From NCBI GenBank assembly GCA_012295275.1, contig CM022673.1, positions 27,218,001 to 27,282,000 of the forward strand: DNA of 64,000 bases, given 5' to 3'. Below, piece by piece: positions 6,901 to 61,331 of this stretch. The notes below the pieces were generated by a model. It was not told the DNA's origin. It made no database searches and saw only the letters and a program-made list of their open reading frames with translations. The stretch comes from Chrysomallon squamiferum. Taxonomy: Eukaryota; Animalia; Mollusca. Numbering within the stretch: the first letter of the stretch is position 1; the number at the start of each line of letters is the position of its first letter. Both the position numbers and the translations under genes were made by a program.

Positions 6901-7634
6901 ATAATGACATTTTAGTCAAGCTTTGTTTGGTTTTTGTGTACGTCTCAAAAGGGTTAAAATAAACACGCACACACGCACACACACAAACACCATCTGATAA
7001 AGACAAAAATCGTAAATGTTTCATTGTTATTCTATATATATCCAAACTAAATAATATTGATATTTTACTTGAGTTAAGAAATTCTGTTATTTCATTTAAG
7101 AAACCTACCTATTTTGATACGAATCATACATTATTAAACTGATAATTATTTTATCGACTAAATTAAATAATTTAACAGGCTTGTTATTTATAATGATTAT
7201 TTTATAATAATAATAATGATAATAATAATAATAATAATAATAGTAATTTTCGGTTAAATACAAACATAAATGAAGATTATATTTGTAAAAAAGCTTTGAC
7301 AAAAAAATTGTCATTATTGTACAAAACACCATTCAAGAAAATACCGAAAATACATCGAGTCTTTTCGCCGATACTCGTAACGGAATATTACGGAAAAGAC
7401 CGAGGTACATGACATTTTTATTCGGTTTTAAAATAGTGAAACATTAAGAACATGTTAAACCAAAGATGTTCTAGTATTTATTTATAACATTCCTGAAAAC
7501 AAAATGTTTTGTACATGTATATTTTATATATATTTTTTTAACGTTATCACTGATTAAGTTAGATTAACATACAGTTGCAAGCCGTTAGCTGAAAATTCCT
7601 TAAAAATTAAAAAGCCTAAAGCATATTGGGTATA

Positions 7635-7648
7635 GTTGCCATGGCAAT
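7635..7648. promoter_or_regulatory. X-box (RFX-binding) motif GTTGCCATGGCAAT
   Basis: 13/14 match to the palindromic X-box GTTGCCATGGCAAC. It lies about 380 bp upstream of the YTH-NTase ATG and just downstream of a CpG-enriched patch (7340-7430). Confidence 0.5.
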
Positions 7649-8026
7649 GATTAAAGCAGCTAGATATTCTTGAATATGATTTTAATATAATTTTTATGTA
7701 ATATTAAAAGTGAGTAACATCTAGAAACCCTTTACATTTAATAATAATAATAATAACGAAATGTATAATGATGGTAATTTTGTGTTTTAATTTACATTTT
7801 TATTATTAAATTTGGCACACTAATTCAATAACAAAATAAAATAACAAATATCCCCAAACTGACAAATAAGCAAACAGCAAAACCTCATAAACGAAAACTT
7901 ATGACAAAAGCATGGACAACATAAAATCCTCATTTTATTAAAAAATACATTAACTAACTAAAAAAAATGATTTCCATTAAAATTCTTTGAATACATTTTC
8001 ACCATATCAAGACATTACCATCAACT

Positions 8027-9696
8027 ATGGCCAGTTCGGGCTGCTGTGAAAAATACTATTTTATTGTGAAATGTCGAAATATAGAAGCTTTAAAAAAATG
8101 TTATGAATCAGGTAGATGGGCATGTAGGAATAGAGTTAAACCCCCTCATCCACACACCATCCTAACACACTGTTTAAGAAGGAAGCCTGTCATTTTAATA
8201 TTCAGTGTTAATAACTGCCATGGTTGGCATGGTTACTGTGAAATGACTGATGTTCCTGAAGCTGTTGGTAGCAGCAAATCTGATTCTGGTTTTAAAATGA
8301 TTGACAGCCATGATGCTGGTGTTGATGAATTGGATGGTGGCAAAAATAAAGAAGATGGTATTTTAATACCTAAAAATATTGATGATACTAAAATGGAGTC
8401 ATGTTCTTCGGTTGCATTTGAAAAGGAAACTGAAGAGACTGAATGGTATTATTTCAATGTCCAGTGGAAAACAATATTTTTAAAAGAATTTGGAGAACAG
8501 TGTTTGTCATCAGCCAAAACAGAACACTTTTCTGTGTCAGAAAATCTTAAAGTTAACAAAGCAAGAAATTGGCAAGATCTTCCTGAAGATATTGGCAGAC
8601 ATCTTTGCGAGTTGATTGATGAGCACTATGCCGAGTTAAAACAACAATTACAGCTGAAAGTTGATGCTCAGAAAGCTAAACAACCTGAATCATTTTTGGT
8701 ACCCGGTGTAAAAGAGGACAGTCACTGGTACTGGCAGAAAGCAGTTTCCAAGGTTGAAGAGGAACTTGGAAGAATTCATCTTGCTTGTCCATTTGGAAGT
8801 CAGAGGTAAGTTATGTTGAAAAAATATTGGAAAATTAGTTTAATACGAATGAAAAAAGACAAATAATAATGATGAAGATGGTGCTAAATAAATAAATAAA
8901 TAAATACCTAAAAAGAGGAGCAAGTTAAAATTGAATTTTGAATTTTCACCAATCATTAATTTTGTAAAATGATATAATATCTGTTTATTTATTAATTTAT
9001 TTATTTATTTATTTATTTATATAGTTGTTTTCTTCCTTGTTGTATTTATAGGTACAATTTGCATGATGCTGACAGTGATATCGATGTGTTTATAGTTTAT
9101 CAAGCAAGCACAAAAGATGTTTTGGGACTTAATCCACCAAAAGAAACAATCAAGGTTTAAATTATCTTAGTATCAGATTTCTGTGGTGTATCAAAAAATT
9201 TCTGAAAGCAGAAATGGAACTAATAAAGGGCGACAAATTGTTCAAGCTCATAAATATTTTTTTATCTTTTCTATTTTTTGTTTTTTGAATTTGTTTATTT
9301 ATTTATCTATTTTTTTACATACATATTTTTTTCAATCATTCTAAAAATGATGATGATATCTTCTGTTGATTTTTCACATTTAAAAAATAGAGGCACTATT
9401 GTTTTTTCTTCTTTTCTATGCTTTATATACTGCATGTAGCTTATTTAGAAAGAAACAGTTCTTTCCCAGTTTTTGCAGATGTAGTGTATTGATAATTTTT
9501 TAAAACTGGAATTATTTATGCAAAAAGGTTCATATAATTTTGACTTGTCCCTCCCCAATAAAAAAAATCCTGCATATACATGTGCTTCTTCCTATTTTTC
9601 TCTTTCTGAATAAATGTATATGTGTATGCAAATATATATTTATGTAAATGTTTGTGAAAATATGTTTTTGTGTGTATTTGTGTGTGTGCATCTATA

Positions 9697-9733
<37 letters not shown>

Positions 9734-11841
9734 ATGTACATGTATATAAATGATTGTGTTTGTTTTCAGAACAGTGATAAAGATGGATGTGACTACACGA
9801 TTCTAGAACTACACAGATACTGTGATCTGCTGGCCACTGGTGATCCTCGTTGTGTTGAGACTTTGTTCCTGCATGAATCAAGTCTAGTGAAATGTTCCCA
9901 AGAGTGGAGACAACTCAGGGAAAAGTCTGAACTCTTCCTGACAAGGTTTGTCTGCCAAGTTTAGCGTAATTTTACACCAAAAATATATTGTTGCAGTTAG
10001 GACAGTAGTATTTCTTTTAAAAATAGCTGCCTAACAACTGTTTCCAATTCATACACACAATTGTTTTGATTCAGATTAAAATATGTATGATATGTGTTAG
10101 AATCAGGTTAGGATTAGGGTTAGAGTTAGGATTTGGATTACTGTTATAGATATTATTAGATTAGGAGAAGAAGCTATTGAAATTCATTTCAGAGAGAAAA
10201 AGTAATAATTGTAAAATTCTCCACAGAATTAAAAAGAACATTAAGAAGAATATAAATTCAAGGCTTAACTAAATAAATTTTGCAGGAAATTTTTCACTAA
10301 AAAATAATTTAAAAATTTGAAAAAATTAAGTAATTTGTTTTACTAGACAGTGCCTGGACAAATATCTTCGAGATGCACTAGGATCAAATGGTGTAAAACA
10401 GTTGTCGAAGTGGAAAGACCTGAATCCTGAAACAAAGGAAGTACCTACAAGAATTAAGAAGCTGGTATATATCATAGTCAGACTTCTTCAAAATGCAAGG
10501 TATGGTTCTTTTAGGCACTTAGCATACTGAACCAAAATATTTGCTTTTGACAAATACAATAGATGTTAAAAATAATGAAATATAAACAAAATATTTGGAT
10601 GAAAATTTATTATTAGTTATGATTTCAATTTTTTGTTTTTGTTTTTAGTATTTCATAATTATTTCTAACAGCATTATTCATCAAAAAAATAAATAAATAA
10701 AAATAAATAAAAAACATTACTAAAATTAAAAGTGTTTGCACCAGTCAAAGCTTAGCTAAAACCTTTTAACTGAACATGGTTTTTAAACACAGCTGAGTAA
10801 GAACATTTACACAACTTTTGTTCTTTTCTAACTCTTCAAGATGTTTTGTTTGTGTTGTTATTTTTGTTTTAAACAATACTAGTTAAGACACACAATCACA
10901 CACATACATACATACACAAAGACACTCACTCAGGATGTTGTGTGTATTCAGAAGTGTATGTGTGTGTGGATTGGTGTTGACTGGTTTTTTCACTGCTAGT
11001 GTAGCCACATATTTATACACTCAAGATGTAGGTTGTTTTGCTGTTTGTCTGCATAAGCACACAAAAAATATGTGTTTTTTATTTAGAGATATCATTCAGG
11101 GTGTCCATCTTAAAGTATTCCGGGAAGCTGGTTCAAATGAACATCAAGTACTAAAGTCCATTAGACAGGATCAGAAAACAATAGATGATATGTGGAGCAT
11201 AATAAAGAGGTACAATATGTAGATAATAAATGAATGTTTAATAGATTAAAGTACTAATGCATTAAATGAATGAAGAAGAAAGAAATATTTTGTTTAACAT
11301 CAACGTTTTTTTTCAATCTTATATATGCTTTTTTTATATATGTTATTGAAAATGTCCATTCAGATAATGAGAAAAATTCCAGATAGAGGCTATACAATAA
11401 AATCCTTTTATTCCACTGATCTGAAACAGATTTTTTATTGGTGTGGTCACAAAAACAGGACTACACATACCAAGGCCTTTAATGAAATGGTGCTTAACAC
11501 CTTTTGGACAATTGAGAAGGTTATCATCATTACCATTTAATCCAAAACAACCTAAGAGTGATATATGCGTTGTATATTTATTTTGAAATTTTCTTTGAAG
11601 GTTACAAATAATATATTTGTTTGATATATCTAAATGCACCTACCTATCTAATCTAACAATCTATTGGTCTACATAAACATACATATAATATTGTTTTTCA
11701 CATTAAATTTTATACAGTCTTATGGATGAGGTGGAACAAGGAAAAGATAATGTTACCATGGATACAACAGAATCAAAGAAACTTGTGGAAAAATGGCTTC
11801 TTCAGTTAAGATATGATGACTTCCATTTGCATTCACTATGA
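8027..11841 (+). CDS. YTH-like domain fused to RlaP/YcgL-like (Pol-beta superfamily) nucleotidyltransferase, 485 aa, 6 exons
   Basis: Exons 8027-8805, 9052-9154, 9770-9945, 10347-10499, 11087-11209, 11718-11841. All introns are GT-AG, phases are consistent, and the total is 1458 nt with no internal stop. The N-terminus has YTH hallmarks: YYFIVKCRN...SGRWAC...VILIFSVNNCHGWHGYCEM...FNVQW...KVNKARNWQDLPEDIGRHLCELID. The C-terminus has FGSQRYNLHDADSDIDVFIVY (hGS-x10-DhD), DYTILELHRYCDLLATGDPRCVETLF and a terminal VEKWLLQLR, as in RlaP/Nuc-transf proteins. Confidence 0.88.
11265..11515. mobile_element. Degraded gastropod SINE-like repeat in intron 5 of the YTH-NTase gene (related fragment at about 24550-24690)
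   Basis: Motif order gaaagaaatattttgtttaac...cagataatgaga...cttttat...acaggactacacataccaaggccttt resembles an abundant gastropod SINE body recalled from memory; not searched. Confidence 0.35.
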
Positions 11842-13832
11842 ATGACGTGATATGAAAAACACTGTTTTTAATGACATTATACAAAAAATTCAAATGGAAA
11901 TAATCACTATCACTGTTCTCAACCAAATGAACATAAAGAAAAAGAGATAAAATGAAAGAAGAGAAATCACAGAGAAATATTTTAAAAGAAACTTCAAACC
12001 ACATTTTCTGTGGGATGGAAACTTTCTCATTTATGTAGTTAAACAATTTATAAGTTTTCCAGATGACATTCAGTTTGTTTTATTAATAAATCTGTAAATG
12101 ATATCTTGTGTTCAAAACCAACTGCAATATGTAACTTTGTCCACATTGATATAACCTGTATGTATAAATAAGATGTATATTTTTTTATTTATTAAAATAT
12201 GAAATACAAACTGAAATTAACTTGGGCTTTCTTTGTTGTTAAACATAAAACTAATTTTCCTTTCTTCAACATTTTTGAAGGCTGATGTTTTTATTTCAGT
12301 GTGTTAATATTTTATATTGAAAAGTTTAATTTCAAATATATCATCTTATGATGTTTATTTTCCAATTAAAAAATATGTACAAATGTATGTATAAATATAC
12401 ATTAAATGTTTGCATTTAAACCAGAGTATGTCAAACATAAAAATGGAAAGAGTAACAAAATCACAAAGTATGCAAAACACTTTATTTTAATACTTGTGAC
12501 ACTAAAAGTGAAACTGTAGCCTTAACACTAGTAGGTAAACTTAATCAGCAGCTTATATATAAATACACATATATATACACACGCACACATACATACATAT
12601 ACACAAACATACACACATATATGTACACAATATATAACATACATGCATATGTATGAATGTATACATGTATGTATTTATGTATTTTTGTGTATGCATGTTG
12701 TCTGTGTTTGAGTGTGTGTGTTCTTGTGTACACATACACACACACAGACATACGTACACAGACAGACTCATGTATATACATGTTATTTATTGCAAAGTTA
12801 ACATGATGGCTTCCGTGTTAAAGTAACATCTAAAAATATTCATGCAAATATAAAATCCAACAAAAATATGTATTATGAAATATTATTGCATATATAATAT
12901 TATATAATCACTGGATGTACAAAATACTGCTCTTTTCTAATATATACATGTATATCAAAAGTATGTATTTGTGGAGTAATTTTGTACAACTATTTTAAAA
13001 CAATATTCTTCATTTTTAACATTTAGTTACTCTGCTGTGAATTTTCAGGCCAAGTTTCATGTGCATAAGTTACGTAAGTTTCCTCCTATTTAATAATATT
13101 TGATATTGCATATATTATCATCTAATAGTTTAAATCTGTTGTTTTAAACAATTAGGCCCATTTTTAATTTACAAACATATTAACAAAACAGAGACAAGTA
13201 TTTCTGTCTCATTGTTTTTCTTCTTTTTCTTTTTCCTTTTAAAAATATTTTTATCCAATATGTATATTAAAAACATACTTTTATAAAATTCAATAGGATC
13301 TATAATATGTAAAAAATGTATTTATTCTATTATAGTTTGTGTATGAGTTAAAATTGCAGGCAAGAAAAGTTAAAAAGCTAGACATTCCAAATATATAAAA
13401 TTTCAAAAAGCCATATTAAATACTGATAATCAAGATGAAGTATATGTCTGATATCACAGAATGTTTATCATAGGTAGAAATAATTTTTTCAGGCTAATAC
13501 TCACAACCATTGCCAGTAATTACAAATATTTTGGGGGGTTTTGAAATTAAAATCTCCTCAATCTGTTTTAAGGGACAAGATCAGTTACACAACAAATCAG
13601 TGTATTTCAAAGAATCACAATCATGTGAAAGCAAAAAATTTAAACATTCTCTGAGATTCTCTGTACATTCTGATTAACTAATGTAATGTTTAAATAGTGG
13701 TGGAAAATGGTTTTTAAAAAGAATAAAATAAAATACTAAATCACTCCAGAAAGTACAGTCCAAAAAAAAAAAAGAGATATTTAAAAAAAAAAATTTGATG
13801 GTTGTGTTGTGAAATTTTAGTGATTTGCTTCT

Positions 13833-18780: not shown

Positions 18781-18846
18781 AACCAATTTATTTTAGTGTT
18801 ATGAAAACTTTTGGCACGGATTGGTAATATTTTCCTTCGCAACAAA

Positions 18847-21288
18847 ATGGCGCTGGAAGGCAAAGACAATAACACCGAGTCGAAAAAACCACCAATTTCA
18901 CCGAGGCCGAAAGACTGTGGTGACATCCCTGATGTCAAACCTGTCAAAAAGAAGAAGAAGAAGAAGCTGTCAGATTCACAGGATGTAGATCAAACAGATG
19001 AAACTGGAGAAACGAAGCCTCGGAGACGCCGTCGCTCGCAAAGTGCAAGTCAAGACACGGACGCTGAAGTAAACGAATGTAGTAATTTGTCCAGTGAGAA
19101 ACCAGTGACACCCAAGAAAAAGAAAAGAAAACCCAAACTGAAGACTACAGATGGTGATCAGGATAAGACGAAGACAACTACTGAAACAAAAGAGGTAAAA
19201 CTGTCATTATGAATTATCCCTTCACATTTCCCCTTCCACTGACTGCCAGCTGTATTTATAGGAAGTTGCAAATTTATAGTACATCTATCGCATTTAAATT
19301 TTAATTTGCACTATAGTAATGCCAACACGATTTCTTTTTCTGTATATCTAGCACCAGATAACTGTTACAAATAAATAATTATGTTAGAGTCATTTAGTTT
19401 TAAAACAATAACAACAACAAAAAATGATTGTTATTTTATAATATAATACACTGATGTACAGGTTGAAGTTAAAAAACCCAGTGCACATTTTTGCTTTATC
19501 AGATTGTGTTTTAATTTTCCAAGGATGTAGGTGGCAGCAAGGCTAGTTTGTTGACAAATGGCACTGCAGCAAGCACACCAAGAAAGAAGAAAGGAAAGAA
19601 GAAGAAAGCTACAGGACATGCTGTGCATGCTGATGATGAATATCTGGACAATGGTTTAGCTGCTGACTTAGCTTGTGTTAATGATGATATAATAAAAGAC
19701 AATGATCTGAAAGAGGAACCATTATCACTTGTAAACCTTCAGAATAAAGCAAATCTTAGAAGTGAACCTACTCCAAAAGTATATATTGAAATCAACAGTA
19801 AGTCTGTTATACTTTGCTAATAATATATATTCTATAAATTTCCTAGAAATACTTTTCATTTTGAATAAATTCTTATTCTGTAATATGTACTTTTCTGGTA
19901 ATTAATTTAAAACTTTGTAATACATTCTCTCTTTTTTTAACAATATGCTTTGTAAAATTTGTTGTCAACTGAATATTCAACCTACAGATATAATATACAT
20001 TATATACCATTTCATTTCCACATTCTGTTTCTTTAAGTCTCAATAAACCAAAAAATTCATATTTGATTTAGAGGAGTTCACTGTGTGTGCATGTGTGTGT
20101 GTGTTTTTTTTTGTTGCCATTTCATTACATCTTTTTTTATCATTTACACTACGATCTTTATTAAAAATTTAAAAAATCTTCATTTGCAGGAGGTTTTAAA
20201 AAAGAAAGTAAAACACAATATGCAAAACGAGTAGCAGCACAAGAAGTAGAAAAGATAGGATTGCCTGAACCTTCGCGTCAAACAACCATAGACTTTGCAC
20301 TGTCAGTGCACCGGTTCTCAAGACTTTCTGTTTGTTTATTCATGGACTTACAGCGGGCATGGCTTTGTGGCATGTTGTTATTGTTTATGTACTAAGTGCC
20401 TACGATGACTTTGACTTCCTAAGCCACTACCAGCCTCTTGCTTTGCCAGTGCAATGTGTGTTTTATCTTTTACTTGTTTTCTGTACAGTGTCAGCCTGTG
20501 ACAGGTAAGGTATTCTGGTTTCTTCTTTCTTTTTTTTAATTTACTGTTATTATAAATTATCTCCAGATTAATTGGTAATACCATATTCCGGAAATTTCAG
20601 TTCACTGATGTCAAGAATAAAACAACAGCTATTATTATTATATATTTCTAAAGCTATACTTAAGCTATTGTATATATATATAAACATATTGACAGCAAAA
20701 GGTGTTTTTTTTTATGGGTTTTTTCACATTTTAAATGCTATCACAGTGAAAAAGAAATGCATCTTCATGAATTTATTATTTTATTTTAAAATACAATGTT
20801 AATATATTCCTGTTTTTTATTGGCAAAACAAAGTTTAATAGCTGTAATTTTATTATTATTTATTTGATGTTACAGTCACAGCTTGATTGATCCTGATTTT
20901 GTAATCTGGTTAAAACAAATTATTTTTACATAATTTTAAAAACATTTAAAAAAAATTAATAATGGTACATCATGAGAATTAACTAGTTTAGTAAAACATA
21001 CTGAAAGATTTTCCCCTCATTTCCATTTTTTAATGTAGCTGAGTAAACATTTTTTGTTAAATTTATGGTTTTAAAATAATAAATTATTTGGAATTGTTAC
21101 TAGATGTTTTACTATATTCATTTTGAGAAATAAAAGAATATGAAAAAAGCAAAAAACAAAGGAATATGTTTTTAAAAAAAAGATGGGCTAAGCAGAACAT
21201 AAGTGATCAACAAAAAACATAATCATAACTTAATATATTTGTTCTTTTCTCTATTTTATTTTTATTTTAATTTTTAAAACTTTTTACC

Positions 21289-21345
<57 letters not shown>

Positions 21346-22241
21346 TACAGACATATATATGTATATATATTTTAACTCTTTTTTTTCAGATGGGATATAG
21401 GAAATTTAAACGTAAAATTCCTTCTTAAAGCAGTAACATTACACAATGGTGCTGTATCCATCTTAATATATTTTGCTGCAATTATTGTGAGTGTCACTGT
21501 AGTTTCAACCGAAGACAGAATACACCTCTATTATACAAATGAAGACTTGTGGAAAGATCAGAGTGTAAGTTTTAATTAGAAAATTATATTAGCAGGTAAT
21601 ATGGTGAGAAACAATGAATTAAATGGTAAAATATATTAATCACTGTTTAATTTTTTTTAATTTTATCAATAAATACTAGATTTTCATTAAAAAGAAATTG
21701 ATATTAAAGGTTGTTACAAGACAAGAAAAAGGTTTTTTCCACATCAAAAAGTACTACATTTAGAAAAACCCATTAAAATTAAAAATAAAATAAAATGTTC
21801 ATACCAATAGTTGTTAACATTCTTTTTCTTTTAACGTATGGTTTTTAACTTCTTATTTATGATATAAGATTGCTAATTAAGTAATTTTTTCACTTTTATA
21901 TATATATATATTAGAAATTTTATATCAGAAATTTATGTAATAATGTACATATGTATGTGTATTCATTCTTTTATTATTTAGATTACTGTAATAATAATAA
22001 AAAATAAAAACATAGCGACGATTTGACACTCCTTGTTAGCAAATTTTAAATATTTCAGGTTCGAGAATCGGAACTAAGTAGCTGGCGAATAATGAACACT
22101 GCCCGAGGTGTATTAGCCATCCTGGGATGGTTTGTTCTGTCAATCACACCGAATGCCGACAGACTAAGGAAAAGTTTACAGGAAGGGGATGATGATGACG
22201 TTCTCTTGGGCAATGAGGTCTGCATGATATCTCCTGCTTGA
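18847..22241 (+). CDS. TMEM237: Transmembrane protein 237 (ciliary transition zone), about 431 aa, 5 exons, with an apparent 1-nt frameshift in exon 3
   Basis: Exons 18847-19194, 19524-19797, 20190-20504, 21390-21564, 22059-22241. K-rich disordered N-terminus, then TTIDFALSVHR / LKTFCLFIHGLTAGMALWHVVIVYVL...FYLLLVFCTVSACDRWD...LIYFAAIIVSVTVVSTEDRIHLY...WRIMNTARGVLAILGWFVLS: four TM segments matching TMEM237. Exon 3 is one base short near 20312-20320. Confidence 0.9.
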
Positions 22242-26991: not shown

Positions 26992-28232
26992 TCAGCCCAT
27001 GAAACCGCCGCCCATGCTTTGGTTTGGGAACATTCCTCCAAAAGGACTTGGGCCACCACGACCCCTTGCACTGAATCTTCCCTGCCTGTTTGGTTGGCCA
27101 AACATTCCTCCGCCCATCAGTGGTGATCCTGGAAATCGTTGACCACCAAAGCCTCCCATCTGACGACGTTGGCCGCCCTGACCTCTCTGTAAAAATGGGT
27201 TATTCATTGGCTGGGCCATTTGTTGTTGCCATGGATTCCTTGATTGCCAGGGGTTACCACCTTGTTGCCATGGATTACCTGCTTGCTGCCACTGATTCCC
27301 TGTCCGTCCTTGAGTGCGTCCTTGTTGCCATGGGTTTCTCGGTTGTTGCCACGGGCTGAAACTTTGTTGCTGTCGTCCTGATAATCCTCCCAGTCCAAAA
27401 CCACGTGACTGTCCCATGAGGCCTGGAATTTGTCCCCAGGGCATCCCCATGCCTTGGGTACTTGCTCCCCATGGAGATCTACCTCTTGAAGGCTGGCCGA
27501 ACTGTCCACCCAAAAAGAATTCTGTGCTGCTCCTGTCATGGTTGGTCCGGCTGGCCATCCTTGCGATTGTCCTGATGTTTGTCTTGTTGGTTGTCCTGGT
27601 ATTTGTCTTGATGTTTGACCAGGTATTTGTCCTGGAAATTGCCCTTGAAGCTGTCCTGGCATTTGCCCTGGAAGTCCTTGCATTTGTCCTGGAAGCCCTT
27701 GCATTTGTCCTGGAAATCCTGGCATTTGCCCTGGTATTAGTCCTGGAAGTCCTGGCATTCGTCTTTGCAGTTGTCCCGGAAGTCCTGGCATTTGTCCTGG
27801 CAGTTGTCCTGGAAGTTGTCCTGGCAGTTGTCCTGGGAATTGTCCTGGAAACTGTCCTGGAAACTGTCCTGGAAACTGTCCCGGCGTCCGGCCTGGTAGT
27901 GCTGGCAACTGTGGTAGTCGTCGCTGTGTTGGAAACGAAAAACCTCCTAAGTTACCATTTGAAGATCCTGAATTGACATTTGCACCAGAAGTGGAGGTGG
28001 AACTGGAACTGGAGGAAGTGGACGTTCGACGTGTATTGGTATTTGAACCACTTTGACCAAATAGATTGTTATTATTTTGAGTACTCGGAAGGCCAGGTAA
28101 TGCTGGCACATTTTGCGCGCCTGTGTTTCGAGTACCACCACCTAGAAATGAGTTTGTTTGTCCTCCAGTGGGGCCCCACTGAGCTTGGCTCAACGTCAGC
28201 AAAAGTGCTAGTGTTGTCAGAGATACTAGCAT
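26992..28232 (-). CDS. Secreted Gly/Gln/Pro-rich low-complexity repeat protein (about 413 aa), apparent 1-nt frameshift at 27512-27516
   Basis: The ATG at 28232 directly follows an acceptor-like ttattgcag. Signal peptide MLVSLTTLALLLTLSQA/QW, then (F/L/M)PGQ tandem repeats. The ORF 27204-28385 frame switches to the 26992-27558 frame at a T5 run; adding one T gives QNSFLGGQFG, echoing TNSFLGGG near the N-terminus. It continues with NPWQQ repeats and a G/M/F-rich tail to the TGA at 26992. Confidence 0.8.
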
Positions 28233-28280
28233 CTGCAATAAGAAAAGATAACCAGTTATTAGTATATACACTGTCTGAAT

Positions 28281-28385
<105 letters not shown>

Positions 28386-28787
28386 GAATTAATGAAAGAA
28401 CAATTCAATTGTATTACAATCGTATATTCCATGAAAATAAACAAGACTTAATTGCATATATTTTGAGTATTCATCGATTTTGTGAACATCCAAATTTCTT
28501 TTTCTTTTTTCTTAATTATTTGTTATAACATTCAGTATTCTTATATCAAGAAAAAAAAGTAATGATAATTATTTGCCTTAAGTCTTTATGTAATTTTCTT
28601 TCTACTCTTAGTGTAAGTTATAGTTAAAATTGTTAAAACTGTGATTTACATAACTAACAAAATATAAAGTACTATTAATTACATAAACGTATTCTTGTTA
28701 TATTTAGTGGAATAAGATTATCCGAATCTTAAATTTTTGAAAAATGGTCCACTGAGCTGACGAAAATAATAATAATTATTTTTAACT

Positions 28788-41100: not shown

Positions 41101-42580
41101 ATATATTTTATCTACTTCATCTTCAGTATTAAATAATAATATCATTGGTATTTTTTATCAGATGATATAGTTTCTGCCTTTCTAAATAATATTAATTAGC
41201 AGGGGTTTTTTTTGGAGGTGAAAAGATTTAATCATCTGTTTTATTATTATTTTAATTTGTAGCCTGGTGATCCTTATGGAAGACCTCCACCTGCAGCTTA
41301 CCCTCCTTCAGATCCTTATGGCAGACCAGCAGAGAGGTACATACTTATTTAATATAAAAAAAAAATAAAAAAAATAAGAAATAGAATCTTAATTTCTAAA
41401 ACTATTTCCATTTAAAGATCACATTTAAAAAAAAAAAAATCTTTCAGACATGAGCCACCACCCCCTGCCCTCAGCGAGCAAGAGTTTGAAGAAATATTTC
41501 AGCGAAATAAAACTGTGTCCAGCAGTGCTATCAACCGGGCAGTGCAAGATGCCAGTGCAGGTGAATAAAGTGACATACTCATGTCAAATGTTATTTGTAA
41601 ACTTCATTAATACTCATCCAAATTAAAGCAGAATTAACAACTATGGAACTTAACTGCTACCTGATATATTTTTTGTATTATTTAGAAGCTAAAATTCATC
41701 TTGAGAAATCATACTGTTCTAATTGAAATGGATATGACTTGAATTCTGATCCTGATTTGTCAGAGAACACACACATAAATATCATTGTTTAAATTTGACA
41801 AAGGTGTGTAATTTATAACTGTTAGAGTTCAAAATGGATTAGTTGATTTATTTCATTTTCAGCCGATTTTGCCAGCGCTATTGAGACACTGGTGACAGCT
41901 ATATCTTTAATCAAGCAGTCCAAGATAGCTGGCGATGATCGGTGCAAGATTTTAATCAGCTCACTTCAGGATACACTTCATGGCATTGAAGAGAAATCCT
42001 ACGGTTCCAAGTATGTGACAAAATTTTCAGAAATTAATATCTTTGACAGTAAAGTATCAAGTACTTAAACACAACTGCAAATCTGCTGTTTAACATTTAC
42101 ATGTAGTTTCTCTAGCTCTTATTCTTAAATATTTGTGTTTTTGATTATAACAGTTATTATTTAGTTATTTGTTTGGGGTCATTATTAGGTGGGGTAAAAA
42201 AAAAAAACCCACTAAAGAGATGATGAAATATAATTTGGATATTCAGAAAAAACAAAACATAGTAGAGTTATCCTCCCTTGATGCAGCTATTGGAGCAGAT
42301 GGTCAAAAAATGATATTTTATTTTTGGTGTTGTTGTTGTTGTTGTCAGGAGTTCCAGCAGTCGCCGCTCACGCTCACGGTCAAGGGATCGAGACCGAGAA
42401 CGGGAAAAACGAAGTCGCCATCGATCCAGAAGTCGAGATCGTGACTACGAGCGAAATCGAGAGAGGGAGAGGCACTACGAGGAGCGACACCGGTCAGACC
42501 GAGGGGACAGGAGTGAGAGGGAGCGAGAGAGAAGTGAGAGGGAGTATGCTGGCAGTAGCAGCAGCAGTCGCAGGCATTGA
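30511..42580 (+). CDS. CPSF6: Cleavage and polyadenylation specificity factor 6 (CFIm68; CPSF6/7 family), 567 aa (580 with microexon)
   Basis: Exons 30511-30567, 31881-31958, 32304-32411, 33225-33328, 33640-33815, 34221-34403, 34860-34957, 35650-35755, [38092-38130], 40352-40423, 40770-40924, 41263-41336, 41448-41560, 41863-42010, 42349-42580, all in phase. Diagnostic sequence: [35 protein letters not shown]...[15 protein letters not shown], Pro-rich region with [55 protein letters not shown]...[19 protein letters not shown], and an RS/RE tail. Confidence 0.96.
35328..35614. repeat. About 70-bp tandem repeat x4 in the CPSF6 intron preceding exon 8
   Basis: Units start near 35328, 35400, 35469 and 35543: tacttaattacatttgtttattgaaa...ccttcattgtcatgtatttgtactgttgaa. 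Confidence 0.9.
36202..36307 (+). other. Duplicated copy of the CPSF6 exon-8 acceptor plus first 11 codons, ending in TGA (pseudo-exon)
   Basis: 36202-36304 nearly repeats 35580-35682 (gttgaactggtatttcataattgtcatcatactatcctttag|cctcrcctaggaccaggtycccctcctccaata), followed by tga. Confidence 0.88.
38092..38130 (+). CDS. CPSF6: 39-nt symmetric (phase 1-1) cassette microexon of CPSF6 ([13 protein letters not shown])
   Basis: Long polypyrimidine tract plus ctag acceptor, perfect gtaagt donor, frame-preserving, Pro/Gly-rich peptide matching its neighbours. Confidence 0.7.
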
Positions 42581-44082
42581 ATCCTCGATTTTTACAGGTA
42601 CGATTATCACAACTGTTACAGGTAGGTTTGCATATCTGTCAGCACACAAATACATAAATTGTATAAAAGATTATTTTTTTTTTTTTTTTTAATGACTATA
42701 CTTTAAAAGAAGAAAAAAAAATAAAGCTTTTGTTTTTAATCACTATTTCAGTTCTTAAAACTGGTTATGGTTTTCATTTTTTAATTTTTTATAGTTAATT
42801 TATAAAGTAACTGTTTTGTTTTAGTAAGTTTTATATTTATTTAATATTTTAAAAAAGAAAGAAAATGGTTTTATTTTTTATAATTTAATACTTTTACTTT
42901 CTTTCAGATTTCGATCTAAAATTATTTATTATTTTTTTAAACATTTTTTTGGCCAAATTTCTAAATATATAAATTTTGTTTGGATGAATTAATTTTGTGG
43001 AAATTTTTTGTTAAATCTTTTTAGCCAGAAATTATTATTATTATTATTGTTATTGTTACTGTTTATTTATTCTTCTAAAAATTATTATTTCTTTTTTATT
43101 TATTCATTTTAATTAATGTATATTTATTATTTATTTTTACATTTTAAATAATACATATTTTTCCTTTTAATGACTTTAAGATTTTCAGCTAATTATTTTT
43201 ATTGTTATTGTTATTATTATTTTATTACTATTAATGGGGGGTTTTTTTTTTTTTTTTTTTTTTTTTATACTTAAAAATGTAAATTCCTTTTAATTACAAT
43301 TTAATTTTTTTTTTTTTTTTTTTTTTTTTTTCATGTTAATTATAAACATGGCTGCAATAATCTTTTGGCTATTTTATAAATTAATGATTTTATAATAACA
43401 ATACAGCAAAATAAACATTTATTTCATTTATATATATGTATATATATATATAAATAAATGAAATAAATGTTTATTTTATTTAACATCACTAGGAATATTT
43501 TACTTAATATGAAATGGGAGAGAAAAAAGGATTTTGTTGTAAAATTTGGGGGTTGAGTTTTTTTCTAAAATCACATTGAGTAAATAAAATAATAATAAAG
43601 AAATATGATTGCAGGATTTTTTTTTTTTTTTTTTTTTTTTTTTGACTGATTGTTACGAACAGAAATTCAACTGGATTCTGTTTGTCTGTAAATATTATTA
43701 ATATTATTTGCAGAACTCAGTTGATTTTCAAGCCTGAAATTGGTTATCATTGCTCAATTTTGGGGAAAACTGAAGTATTTTGAAAATTATTTTGTGGTAT
43801 TTTGTTGGGTTATTATTATTATTATTATTATTTATGTTTTGTTTTTTTTGGTCTTGTTTGTATGTTTATGAGGTTTTGAAAATATTCTCATTATTCATCT
43901 CTTATGTATTCTGTGAGAACATCAGGTCATTTCCATGTCAACTTTATGTTCTTTTATACAACGCTAGCAGTGTTTACAATTTCAATAACATCTTAGGAAT
44001 TACTCCCATGAATGTGATAAAGTTGACCTGAAATGACTCGATTAGAATATTGTTTGGCTTGTATTTTCTTTTTTTTTTATAA

Positions 44083-57783: not shown

Positions 57784-59524
57784 TACATAGGCACAGTCAT
57801 GCTGGTAAGAAGAAAAAAAAAAAGATCCCAAATCTAACAAAATAGTAATCTAGATAAAAACGTTAGTCAGTGATATAAATAAAGTAAAATAAAATAAAAA
57901 TAAATAAAATGAAGTAAAATAAACTAAAACAACATAAAATGAAGTAAAATAAACTAAAACAAAATAAAATGAAAAATATATATAAAAAAAAAAATAAAAA
58001 TAAAGACAGACAAACAGTAACGTGTTGTTTTACATACTGATCTGGAGTAACGCCCACCTGCACTGATTTCAGTTCTGACTTGAGAGTTTTAATTACGTCA
58101 CACAAACGTCTCGTGCGTTCGGTGCTCTTCTTCTGCATGTTTTCCAGTTGCGCAGCTTCTTTCATTATTTCTCCAATATAAATATATATTTTTTAAATTT
58201 ATTTCAACAATATCACAATATACATTTATTTATTTATTTATTTATTTATTTTAACAACATAACAATATAAATTTTTTTTTATTTGAACAATTTAAAAGCT
58301 ACGAAAAGAACATACTTTCAATTTAATATTTGTTAAGGGTGGTTCTTCATTATATAAACTTTAACACCGTAGTTTTTCCGTTTTTTCTTTTCCTGCCATG
58401 TATAGAGCTTTAATAAAAGACATTACGATATCGAACGAAATAGTATAAAAGTATAAGCTATCTTGCACTGACAAACTAGTTGAAATGTTTTATGAACTTA
58501 AAACGTTACGAGTTACTTTACCGATTAAAAGATATCGGTGTTGTCTCCAAAGTTCAGACACATCCCCCGCTATATTTCGAGCATTTTTCAAAGCCACTTC
58601 GAGGTCTTTCAGTTCCATGTTAGTTTGCTTGTTGACTGACTCTTCTTTATCCGCATGGAACAACTGTGGACACGACTCATCATCAACATCGTCATCGTTG
58701 CGCTTTTCTGACTGGTATTCTTTGTTCGACACTGTAGGAATAAACTTGACGTGCTTCACAAAAATGGGCAGAATCCACGAGAGATAATCGAACAGGTTGG
58801 CAATTTGCTTGTCCATGTTTTCTATCAGGCTGGCGGCTATTTCCATTGTAGACGACGAGCTGCACTCGCAGGAACATTGAGACTTGATGGACTCGTTCGA
58901 ATTGCTTGGACGGCGAAAACGTTGAGTGAAAAGAGAATCGAATGACACCGGTTCCTGATCTCCGGAGTCTCCCGGAAGAGAACGAGGCAGTTCGTGAAGA
59001 AACGATTTCGGCGAACCGATTTCCGAATCGCGTCGTTCGTTTTTGTCGATTAAGCCCGACTTCTCCGCGAGATCGGGAGCTCTGTCGTCCTGAGACCGAC
59101 GCATGTTATCATGAAAAATATCACTCTCGCTCCTCACTCGTCTCACAGCGTATTCTGATTCCAACAGGTTGCCGACTTCATTATCGTCCAGCAACGAACT
59201 GGATGACACCTCGTCAAGAACGACTCTTTCAGACGACGGCTTCCTTCTCAGAAACATCAGACTGTCGACTTTTGAGACCATGCGACTCTGCTCGACTCTC
59301 GCAGTGGATCTTGCCAGCAAATTGTGATCTACGGGGTCCGTCGTTTCTTCTTCCGTGTCACTCTGGCCGGCTTTTAAAATGGCTTCAGATACTAAAGAAT
59401 CCGTAATTTCTTCCTGACATTTATCTTCGCTAATGTTTATTGCACTTTCTCTATTAAACATCATCTTTCTAAACATCAATAAACCGCTATTTCTTACCGA
59501 ATTCTTGTTTTGGTATGACGTCAT
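55774..59524 (-). CDS. Uncharacterised protein with acidic/Ser-rich disordered N-half and coiled-coil C-half, about 581 aa, 6 exons
   Basis: Exons (minus strand) 59524-58522, 58170-58058, 57575-57467, 57190-57096, 56658-56409, 55949-55774; GT-AG, in phase, 1746 nt. Heptad segments: MELKDLEVALKNARN, LCDVIKTLKSELKSVQ, INELRLLIYKQQLQLAESREKNKELERELENVL. The exon 2 acceptor is an unusual GAG and the last two junctions have alternatives. No family recognised. Confidence 0.7.
56282..56375. repeat. (GA)n plus (GACT)n intronic microsatellite
   Basis: Direct reading. Confidence 0.9.
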
Positions 59525-59608
59525 ATCGGCACTTGTAAACTGACGTCACTGAATCGCTGATTCCAGCAAACAGCTGAATTAATTTTCTCTCCTTCACTCT
59601 TTTCTTTT

Positions 59609-60517: not shown

Positions 60518-60701
60518 TTGTTCGACAGATAGCGAGTACTTTTTTTTGAAAAGTTTTTGGTTTTTGTTTGGCTGATAGATTGTCTATTTATTTATTTATT
60601 CATTTATTTATTTATTTATCTTTGTCTATTTTTAAACAGTGAAATAACATCCTATACTTCGCGTTACCATCGAAGGATCATTTGAAATACTGAACACAGT
60701 C

Positions 60702-61331
60702 ATGGACAAAGGTAACAATGAATTTTGTAGAGGACTGGATCAAGCCAAACAATGTTCGAATAACATCGCCTCTAAAGCTGCCGATGAATCGACTAATGTT
60801 TTAAACAGAGCAGTGGAAGGCACTGCAGGTGCCTATAGCAAAGCCAGGGATGATTCAGCCTATGTATACAACAGAGCTAAGGATGGTGCAACCAGTGTTG
60901 TCAACAAAGCCGTGGAAGGTACAACTAATGCAGTGCAAATGGTTAAGGACGGTACAAGCAATGTAATGAACAAAACTGTAGAGGGTACAACTAATGCAAT
61001 GAACAAAGCCAAGGAGGGTGCAACCACTGTTGTCAACAAAGCCGTAGAAGGTACAACTAATGCAGTGCAAATGGTTAAGGACGGTACAAGCAATGTAATG
61101 AACAAAACTGTAGAGGGTACAACTGCAGCAGTGCAGAAGGCCAAGGCGGGTACGACCAGTATAATCAGCAAATGCATGGAGGGTACGACAAATATAGTGA
61201 GCAAATGCATGGAAGGACTACAAAAGGTGAAGGTGGGAACAGCTAGCGCACAGACGAGGCCGAAGGAAGGCACAGTCGGTGGACAACAGAAAGCCAAAGA
61301 TGAGCCAGGTAATGTAGTGGGTAATGTTTAG
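60702..61331 (+). CDS. 11-mer repeat amphipathic-helix protein (LEA-3/perilipin-like), 209 aa
   Basis: Higher-GC ORF built of units such as AKDGATSVVNK/AVEGTTNAVQM/VKDGTSNVMNK/TVEGTTNAMNK, with Gly every 11 residues and a near-perfect 132-bp internal duplication. An acceptor at 60638-60639 implies an upstream non-coding exon. A possible donor at 61309 could extend the CDS. Confidence 0.78.
   Translation: MDKGNNEFCRGLDQAKQCSNNIASKAADESTNVLNRAVEGTAGAYSKARDDSAYVYNRAKDGATSVVNKAVEGTTNAVQMVKDGTSNVMNKTVEGTTNAMNKAKEGATTVVNKAVEGTTNAVQMVKDGTSNVMNKTVEGTTAAVQKAKAGTTSIISKCMEGTTNIVSKCMEGLQKVKVGTASAQTRPKEGTVGGQQKAKDEPGNVVGNV

Follow-up and report, generated by a model that had tools for sequence, protein, structure and literature searches.

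A 64,000-nt stretch of the Chrysomallon squamiferum genome (the window, to whose forward-strand positions all coordinates refer) carries at 8027-11841 a spliced gene encoding a protein of 485 amino acids (aa), in which an N-terminal YTH domain is joined through a helical linker to an RlaP-type nucleotidyltransferase (NTase). The observation of this spliced YTH-RlaP gene is confirmed. From the anatomy of the protein and the reported activity of Pseudomonas RlaP, it is probably, though by no means securely, an RNA 3'-end nucleotidyltransferase that would make short additions at the 3'-OH and whose remodelled YTH domain would serve for RNA docking.

Gene structure and transcript evidence

Joining the six exons at the splice sites proposed in a first-pass annotation produces a 1458-nt frame (485 aa plus stop) with no internal stop, exactly as that annotation had it. 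All five introns (246, 615, 401, 587, and 508 nt) begin with GT and end with AG, the start ATG is preceded by A at -3 and followed by G at +4, and a TGA in the same frame lies upstream of it. Intron 1 does indeed interrupt the catalytic motif, falling between FGSQR and YNLHDADSDIDVF. Exon 1 (8027-8805, aa 1-260) encodes the YTH domain, the helical linker and the start of the NTase up to GSQR. Exon 2 (9052-9154) contributes Y261, S268, D269 (9077-9079) and D271 (9083-9085), and exon 3 (9770-9945) the third acidic residue, D302 (9791-9793), together with E307, D319 and E324. The helical domain is encoded by exon 4 (10347-10499; K391, Y394, R398) and exon 5 (11087-11209; R430), and the C-terminal helix (WL..R476) and stop codon by exon 6 (11718-11841).

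Four public sequencing runs were compared with positions 7600-12500; three of them, all from one study, are RNA (X1, X2, and X4), represented by contigs that diverge slightly from the window. These contigs cover 7866-8398 and 8437-8719 of the exon 1 region, and they splice intron 2 (in X2, joining exons 2 and 3), intron 3 (in X1, X2 and X4, joining exons 3 and 4 in 3/3 RNA runs) and intron 5 (in X1, joining exons 5 and 6) at the exact predicted bases, which places both junctions of exon 3 in RNA. No contig of the RNA runs bridges or contradicts introns 1 and 4; RNA bears out the proposed junctions at three of the five sites. A probable 5' untranslated region (7866-8026) is unspliced in the X1 contigs, which cannot define the transcript start, and a probable 3' untranslated region (11842-12090) has a polyadenylation-type hexamer at 12085, with RNA contigs extending to 11972 and 12070. 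Among the differences listed between the window and the runs, all 11 insertions or deletions lie outside the coding sequence, which makes up 30% of the stretch compared, and 9 of the 14 coding substitutions are synonymous.

The junction at intron 1 can be followed in related proteins. The motif is read through uninterrupted in 61 stored proteins, and 75 gene calls stop or diverge right at it (near-identical cluster members counted in both), the latter being the pattern expected of unspliced DNA at intron 1. Four complete frames of 454-487 aa are found on Logan contigs of 1.6-2.0 kb, which appear to be spliced transcripts because they are too short to hold the introns. The orthologue of the gastropod Gigantopelta, the nearest relative (NTase 73% identical), matches all six exons in a tblastn search of the window, at 54-83% identity.

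The RlaP nucleotidyltransferase half

Single exons of the window fall below the Pfam cut-off for RlaP (PF10127, 23 bits) because the coding sequence of the domain is divided among six exons: exon 2 alone (34 aa) scores 15.4 bits and is also sub-threshold for NTP_transf_2. Whole orthologues exceed the cut-off at 35-57 bits, and the nearest of them (P0001, NTase 73% identical) scores 44.4 bits. In a profile-profile comparison, the YTH-RlaP family matches 20 stand-alone RlaP-type proteins, one of which (P0136) is a partial family member, with a probability of 100% and an E-value of 8e-60 over 228 columns. Orthologues also match the phage family phrog_388.

The GS motif, the DID and the probable third Asp that had been described as intact are G257-S258, D269-I-D271 and D302. 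Y261, S268, D269, D271, D302, and E324 are present in 52/52 family rows, K391 and R398 in 49 of the 52 with gaps in the other three, and the three catalytic Asp residues in 29-30 of 30 stand-alone rows. The rows were selected by the motif GS-x-x-Y/F/H (6 of 88 were outside the pattern and excluded), so that the conservation of G257, S258 and, largely, Y261 is fixed by construction. The model of a Mytilus NTase alone (P0044; predicted local distance difference test (pLDDT) 95.6, predicted template-modelling score (pTM) 0.92) predicts that the NTase domain leads into a helical domain, with a helix at the C-terminus.

What is known of RlaP chemistry comes from bacteria. The first-pass annotation took its activity to be merely predicted, a view overtaken by a preprint of December 2025, whose accessible portion reports that Pseudomonas RlaP puts 1-2 nucleoside monophosphates (NMP) onto the 3'-OH of RNA, acts preferentially at the break in a split transfer RNA (tRNA), prefers Mn2+, and leaves E. 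coli protein and DNA unlabelled (PMC12776372). The Pseudomonas enzyme named PfRlaP has little preference among nucleoside triphosphates (NTP), and a few eukaryotic RlaP members are noted, without description in that portion (PMC12776372). Phage RlaP has been linked to RNA ligases, as far as the accessible text goes (PMC7824862). No RNA ligase was found among the 68 open reading frames (ORFs) of the window that were scanned, but eukaryotic genes are not arranged in operons; the locus searches gave no prokaryotic or viral neighbours.

The YTH half

Exon 1 matches the Pfam YTH domain (PF04146) at 57 bits (cut-off 22.1, E 2.2e-15), which together with the RlaP scores of the orthologues upholds the proposed order of YTH domain, helical linker and NTase. 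The YTH domain (aa 11-197, 8057-8617) contains K15, A21, W31 (8117-8119) and the family motif HGWHG. It is split by an acidic hypervariable insertion (aa 76-139, 8252-8443) with 17 D/E vs 7 K/R, whose counterpart in an orthologue model is a loop of pLDDT below 50, and it resumes in a second half (8444-8572) with W140 and R180-N181-W182. A long helical linker with a PxF-type motif (about aa 198-232, 8618-8722) follows, placed by alignments and by helix 160-190 of an orthologue model. The model of the Solemya orthologue (P0011; pLDDT 83.7) superposes on YTHDC2 with Z 19.7 (root-mean-square deviation (rmsd) 2.0, 127 residues aligned) and on YTH structures overall with Z 16.6-19.7, and Foldseek matches it to YTHDF2 at E 3e-9. 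The best matches of the whole model among predicted viral structures are phage nucleotidyltransferases, down to E 6e-12.

The pocket that recognizes N6-methyladenosine (m6A) is described as W377, W428, L439, and N367 (PMC6112328, in the part accessible). We mapped it onto 41 animal-type YTH rows (26 named, the window protein, and 14 assumed to be animal) through alignments to YTHDC2, AtCPSF30 and the canonical YTH protein P0217, the placing of the YTHDC1 numbering on them being in part provisional. The first cage Trp (W377) corresponds to W31 and is kept in 41/41 rows, as are the RNA-groove residues K15 (the Lys of the KS motif) and R180 (the R475 equivalent). The loop after the GY/F strand, which bears the second cage Trp (W428) in canonical YTH domains, is 16-200 aa long and has a Trp in 0/41 rows; in the window protein it is occupied by the Trp-free acidic insertion. 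The position of the N1-reading Asn (N367) is A21 in the window protein and, across the 41 rows, Ser in 27, Ala in 6, Asn in 4, Gly in 2, and Asp in 1. The canonical RDG reads RNW, the D476 equivalent being Asn in 40/41 and residue 182 being Trp or Phe in 37/41. W140 (37/41 rows) misses the register of the third cage position (L439, or Trp/Tyr) by one residue. A basic insertion follows W31, and a basic loop specific to the family has the pattern CRxRxxPPxP. Judged from these alignments, two canonical m6A-pocket residues, the W428 and N367 equivalents, are lost in animal-type rows, and m6A reading by the domain is doubtful; they do not bear out its initial description as a modified-base reader.

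Distribution and evolutionary history

How widespread is the fusion? A search with exon 1 returned 21 longer proteins, 19 of which have both PF04146 and PF10127. A profile search gave 60 matches, those with names being from gastropods, bivalves, a chiton, Owenia, Lingula, Lineus, and the sponge Corticium, and looking up clusters brought in a complete YTH-RlaP of 451 aa from the choanoflagellate Salpingoeca kvevrii. A search of 1.84 billion representatives gave 3253 matches at E ≤0.001, of which the best 150 were listed and 68 were scanned with Pfam. Ten of these were looked up, and the eight with names are further carriers: Balamuthia and Pelomyxa (NCBI) and Arcella, Stenamoeba, Flabellula, Platysulcus, Spironema, and Tripos (EukProt); in Arcella, the Tripos cluster and Flabellula, RlaP scores at or under the Pfam cut-off with the catalytic motif intact. 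An ESM Atlas cluster with the YTH and RlaP Pfam pair has 74 eukaryotic members. The fusion is present in molluscs, an annelid, a brachiopod, a nemertean, a sponge, a choanoflagellate, five amoebozoans, a stramenopile, and a dinoflagellate, and is not the animal peculiarity it had been taken for. None of the named matches listed is from a vertebrate, arthropod, nematode, cnidarian, fungus, or plant, and the named matches of the exon 1 and profile searches include no cnidarian, ecdysozoan or deuterostome; with many matches bearing no name, this suggests loss only tentatively.

An NTase tree was built from 49 rows chosen from 90; its root is arbitrary and its support moderate. It separates 26 YTH-fused from 20 stand-alone rows (92/87), and three ungrouped rows with no detectable YTH domain fall inside the YTH-fused side. 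Animals group with the choanoflagellate and Spironema (98/94), spiralians with one another (100/97) and molluscs likewise (98/94), and the five amoebozoans come together only weakly (87/55). The tree fits one early fusion followed by vertical descent, at least from the ancestor of animals and amoebozoans. Within animals, inheritance apparently was vertical, following host phylogeny, and the tree is also compatible with transfer to stramenopiles and dinoflagellates. Spironema (P0129) and Salpingoeca (P0071) group at 100/98, in conflict with the species tree; the Spironema sequence may reflect prey contamination of the transcriptome or gene transfer, and because of this grouping Spironema was excluded as an independent lineage.

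Several relatives have more than one RlaP copy. Proteins P0132, P0141, P0148, P0149, P0254, and P0140 comprise amoebozoan YTH-RlaP proteins with a second, motif-less RlaP-like copy and the multi-copy Platysulcus protein, whose layout is YTH plus active, dead and active RlaP copies. A clade (100/98) formed by P0152, P0184, P0188, P0207, and P0223 consists of tandem RlaP-RlaP proteins of 510-610 aa without YTH. The C-terminal 570 aa of the Balamuthia protein compare with an Atlas cluster of 605-aa bacterial RlaP proteins, in which Verrucomicrobiota are commonest, at template-modelling (TM) scores of 0.46/0.58. A tandem form may have been ancestral, a lead given by this comparison. The Lingula gene model (P0089) fuses a WIPI4/PROPPIN propeller to YTH-RlaP and is probably a mis-joined neighbour; a WIPI4 gene was not found in the window, and there is no synteny with the Lingula locus.

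Proposed function and alternatives

What might a YTH domain contribute to an RlaP enzyme? In the mechanism that we propose, K15 and R180 of the YTH domain and the basic CRxRxxPPxP loop would hold the RNA, and the long linker helix would bring its 3' end to the cleft that separates the NTase from the helical domain. By analogy with the Pseudomonas enzymes, the RlaP domain would then carry out metal-dependent transfer of NMP, probably 1-2 nt, to the RNA 3'-OH, the preferred substrate perhaps being a break inside a folded RNA such as a nuclease-cut tRNA. The product could be ligated, as in repair, or degraded, as in marking; either is possible. RNA ends are the likely target of the two that had been suggested at first, and the other, a partner protein, is weakened by the failure of Pseudomonas RlaP to label E. 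coli proteins (PMC12776372, accessible portion). Antiviral defence, another early suggestion, finds nothing in the analysis to support it.

Several observations weigh against an RNA 3'-end enzyme with an RNA-docking YTH domain. The pTM of the Solemya model (0.62) does not resolve how the YTH and NTase domains are placed relative to each other. The family's PF10127 E-values are only about 1e-8 to 1e-15, and no RlaP chain, PfRlaP included, is among its matches in the PDB; the substrate is therefore assigned by family and not by close homology. The top NTase neighbours among solved structures, HalB (Z 8.9, rmsd 5.0, 174 residues aligned) and the aminoglycoside NTases, use other acceptors. Of four phage relatives examined, only one shows an RNA ligase annotated within 4-6 kb. 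As for the YTH domain, an aromatic cage may be restored by W140 and W182, and loop tryptophans persist in some protist rows, among them some of the dinoflagellate type.

A more specific form of the proposal, which we put forward tentatively and regard as unlikely, is that YTH-RlaP is a very old eukaryotic RNA-repair enzyme, the product of a single early fusion, in which a rebuilt pocket of W31, W140 and W182, with a small residue at the N1 position, would read a modified base other than m6A, and the NTase would replace nucleotides lost at nuclease breaks before ligation. A purine methylated at N1, in tRNA or rRNA, would be one example of such a mark. If this were true, YTH-RlaP would represent a further class of YTH protein, and molluscs, sponges and many protists would own a modification-guided RNA repair step that model animals are not known to have.

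Alternatively, the rebuilt cage could bind m6A-containing RNA and the NTase could tail that RNA for decay or processing, an m6A reader-writer much as first imagined. The fold is a true YTH fold and W31, K15 and R180 are invariant; W140 sits a single residue from the third cage position, W/F182 adds a new aromatic beside the pocket, two protist rows have a Trp exactly four residues before the strand Phe, as canonical readers do, and an m6A system exists in oysters (PMC10787124, accessible part). However, the second cage Trp is missing throughout the animal-type rows, the N1-reading Asn/Asp is mostly Ser or Ala, and the D476 equivalent is nearly always Asn. The 1-2 nt that PfRlaP adds, with little NTP preference, are also unlike the output of a tailing polymerase (PMC12776372, accessible portion). 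On balance, this seems to us an improbable reading. Less probable again is that, after binding of a nucleic acid by the YTH domain, the NTase nucleotidylates a small molecule or a protein, or synthesises a short oligonucleotide as a signal. Its structural neighbours include HalB and aminoglycoside and protein adenylyltransferases, and there is a faint match to MntA (E 0.04-0.08), but Z-scores of 7-9 are in the background range of the tool, the sequence profiles are firmly RlaP, PADLOC gave no convincing match (best E 0.002), and the unlabelled E. coli proteins speak against it here too. That the exons are not one gene, or that the enzyme half is a dead remnant, is very improbable: introns 1 and 4 are not bridged by the RNA contigs, but stored proteins cross the intron-1 motif where gene calls break, full frames occur on Logan contigs, and the catalytic residues are invariant.

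Relation to known systems

By sequence, the protein belongs to PF10127 and to the YTH fold family, but not to the canonical m6A readers. It shares the PF10127 family match with the RlaP proteins (PfRlaP and PaRlaP, phage phrog_388, and T4 NrdC.11, which is named in the accessible portion of PMC12776372), as well as the three Asp residues and the order of N-terminal NTase and C-terminal helical domain, PfRlaP being compared by description only. Unlike stand-alone RlaP, YTH-RlaP is encoded by a spliced eukaryotic gene, has an N-terminal YTH domain and helical linker, lacks an operonic RNA ligase, and has a Gly-containing insertion at about aa 367-369 that is missing from 29/30 stand-alone rows. 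Identity to named phage RlaP members is only about 24-29%. In Gordonia phage DatBoi (L001, 5989-8262), an RlaP-type gene is followed by a small ORF and then by an RNA ligase.

With YTHDC1, YTHDC2, YTHDF1-3, and the plant and apicomplexan CPSF30-YTH proteins, YTH-RlaP has in common the fold, the Lys and Arg of the groove and the first Trp of the cage; its closest YTH sequence matches are AtCPSF30 and YTHDC2. Compared with these m6A readers, it has no second cage Trp, has Ser or Ala at the N1 position and RNW for RDG, and adds the basic insertion after W31, the acidic hypervariable loop and the NTase. It does not match the architectures of YTHDF, YTHDC1, and YTHDC2 (a stand-alone YTH with low-complexity arms, or a helicase), and Pfam scans of orthologues gave no helicase or ankyrin matches. 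An NTase is absent from all five human YTH proteins, according to the accessible part of PMC6112328. The same part describes fission yeast Mmi1, which has Ala at N367 and binds unmodified RNA, and which resembles YTH-RlaP in its impaired m6A pocket and small residue at that position (PMC6112328); the Solemya model matches its structure at Z 17.5. Mmi1 is without an enzyme domain and relies on a different surface, whereas YTH-RlaP keeps the groove Lys and Arg; a relationship between the two is apparent in the YTH fold only.

Among other nucleotidyltransferases, Hailong HalB and the aminoglycoside NTases also combine a Pol-beta NTase with a four-helix domain (Z 7-9), but identity is 10-14% (HalB 12%), their acceptors differ, and the resemblance is at background for the fold; HalB carries out self-primed oligo-dA synthesis, by the accessible part of PMC13434031. 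The family also matches TENT/TUTase, GLD-2, and Cid1 only faintly (E 0.01-0.02, TM about 0.2), these belonging to a different NTase family. As is proposed for YTH-RlaP, these enzymes are likely to work on the 3'-OH of RNA, aided by an RNA-binding domain.

Both domains were known and their pair is already in automatic annotation, so the novelty lies in its recognition and interpretation and not in the sequence. Our literature search found no publication on the YTH-RlaP fusion, which agrees with the early statement that no animal protein of this architecture has been characterised; a mention is possible in the 2016 paper of Burroughs and Aravind, which reportedly gave RlaP its name. Other YTH contexts are described in PMC7641849 and PMC4738411, with no NTase fusion in the accessible parts. 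YTH proteins have been seen as a handful of m6A readers, and RlaP has been regarded as a repair enzyme of bacteria and phages; here the two make up one protein. In eukaryote groups far apart from each other the family has kept its catalytic residues intact, and it points to an enzyme of RNA 3' ends possibly missing from standard models. It also provides a natural YTH variant with an altered pocket, in a small soluble protein that could be assayed by the published RlaP protocol.

Other genes in the window

The surrounding genes are ordinary-looking. On the forward strand, the exons of a TMEM237-like gene lie at 18805-22238 (Pfam E 4.5e-18 at 20269-20505) and those of a CPSF6/7-like gene at 41416-42689 (RSLD domain E 2e-23, with an RS-rich stretch); the presence of a CPSF6/7-like 3'-end processing factor 30 kb from YTH-RlaP is probably a coincidence. 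On the reverse strand, a 351-aa open frame at 58493-59545 has no Pfam match, and a long frame at 27207-28388, with a signal-peptide-like start and Gly/Pro/Thr/Arg-rich repeats but no convincing Pfam match, possibly encodes a secreted shell or glue protein. A 227-aa frame on the forward strand (60648-61328) has amphipathic repeats that look LEA- or perilipin-like by eye and a weak synuclein match (E 2e-6).

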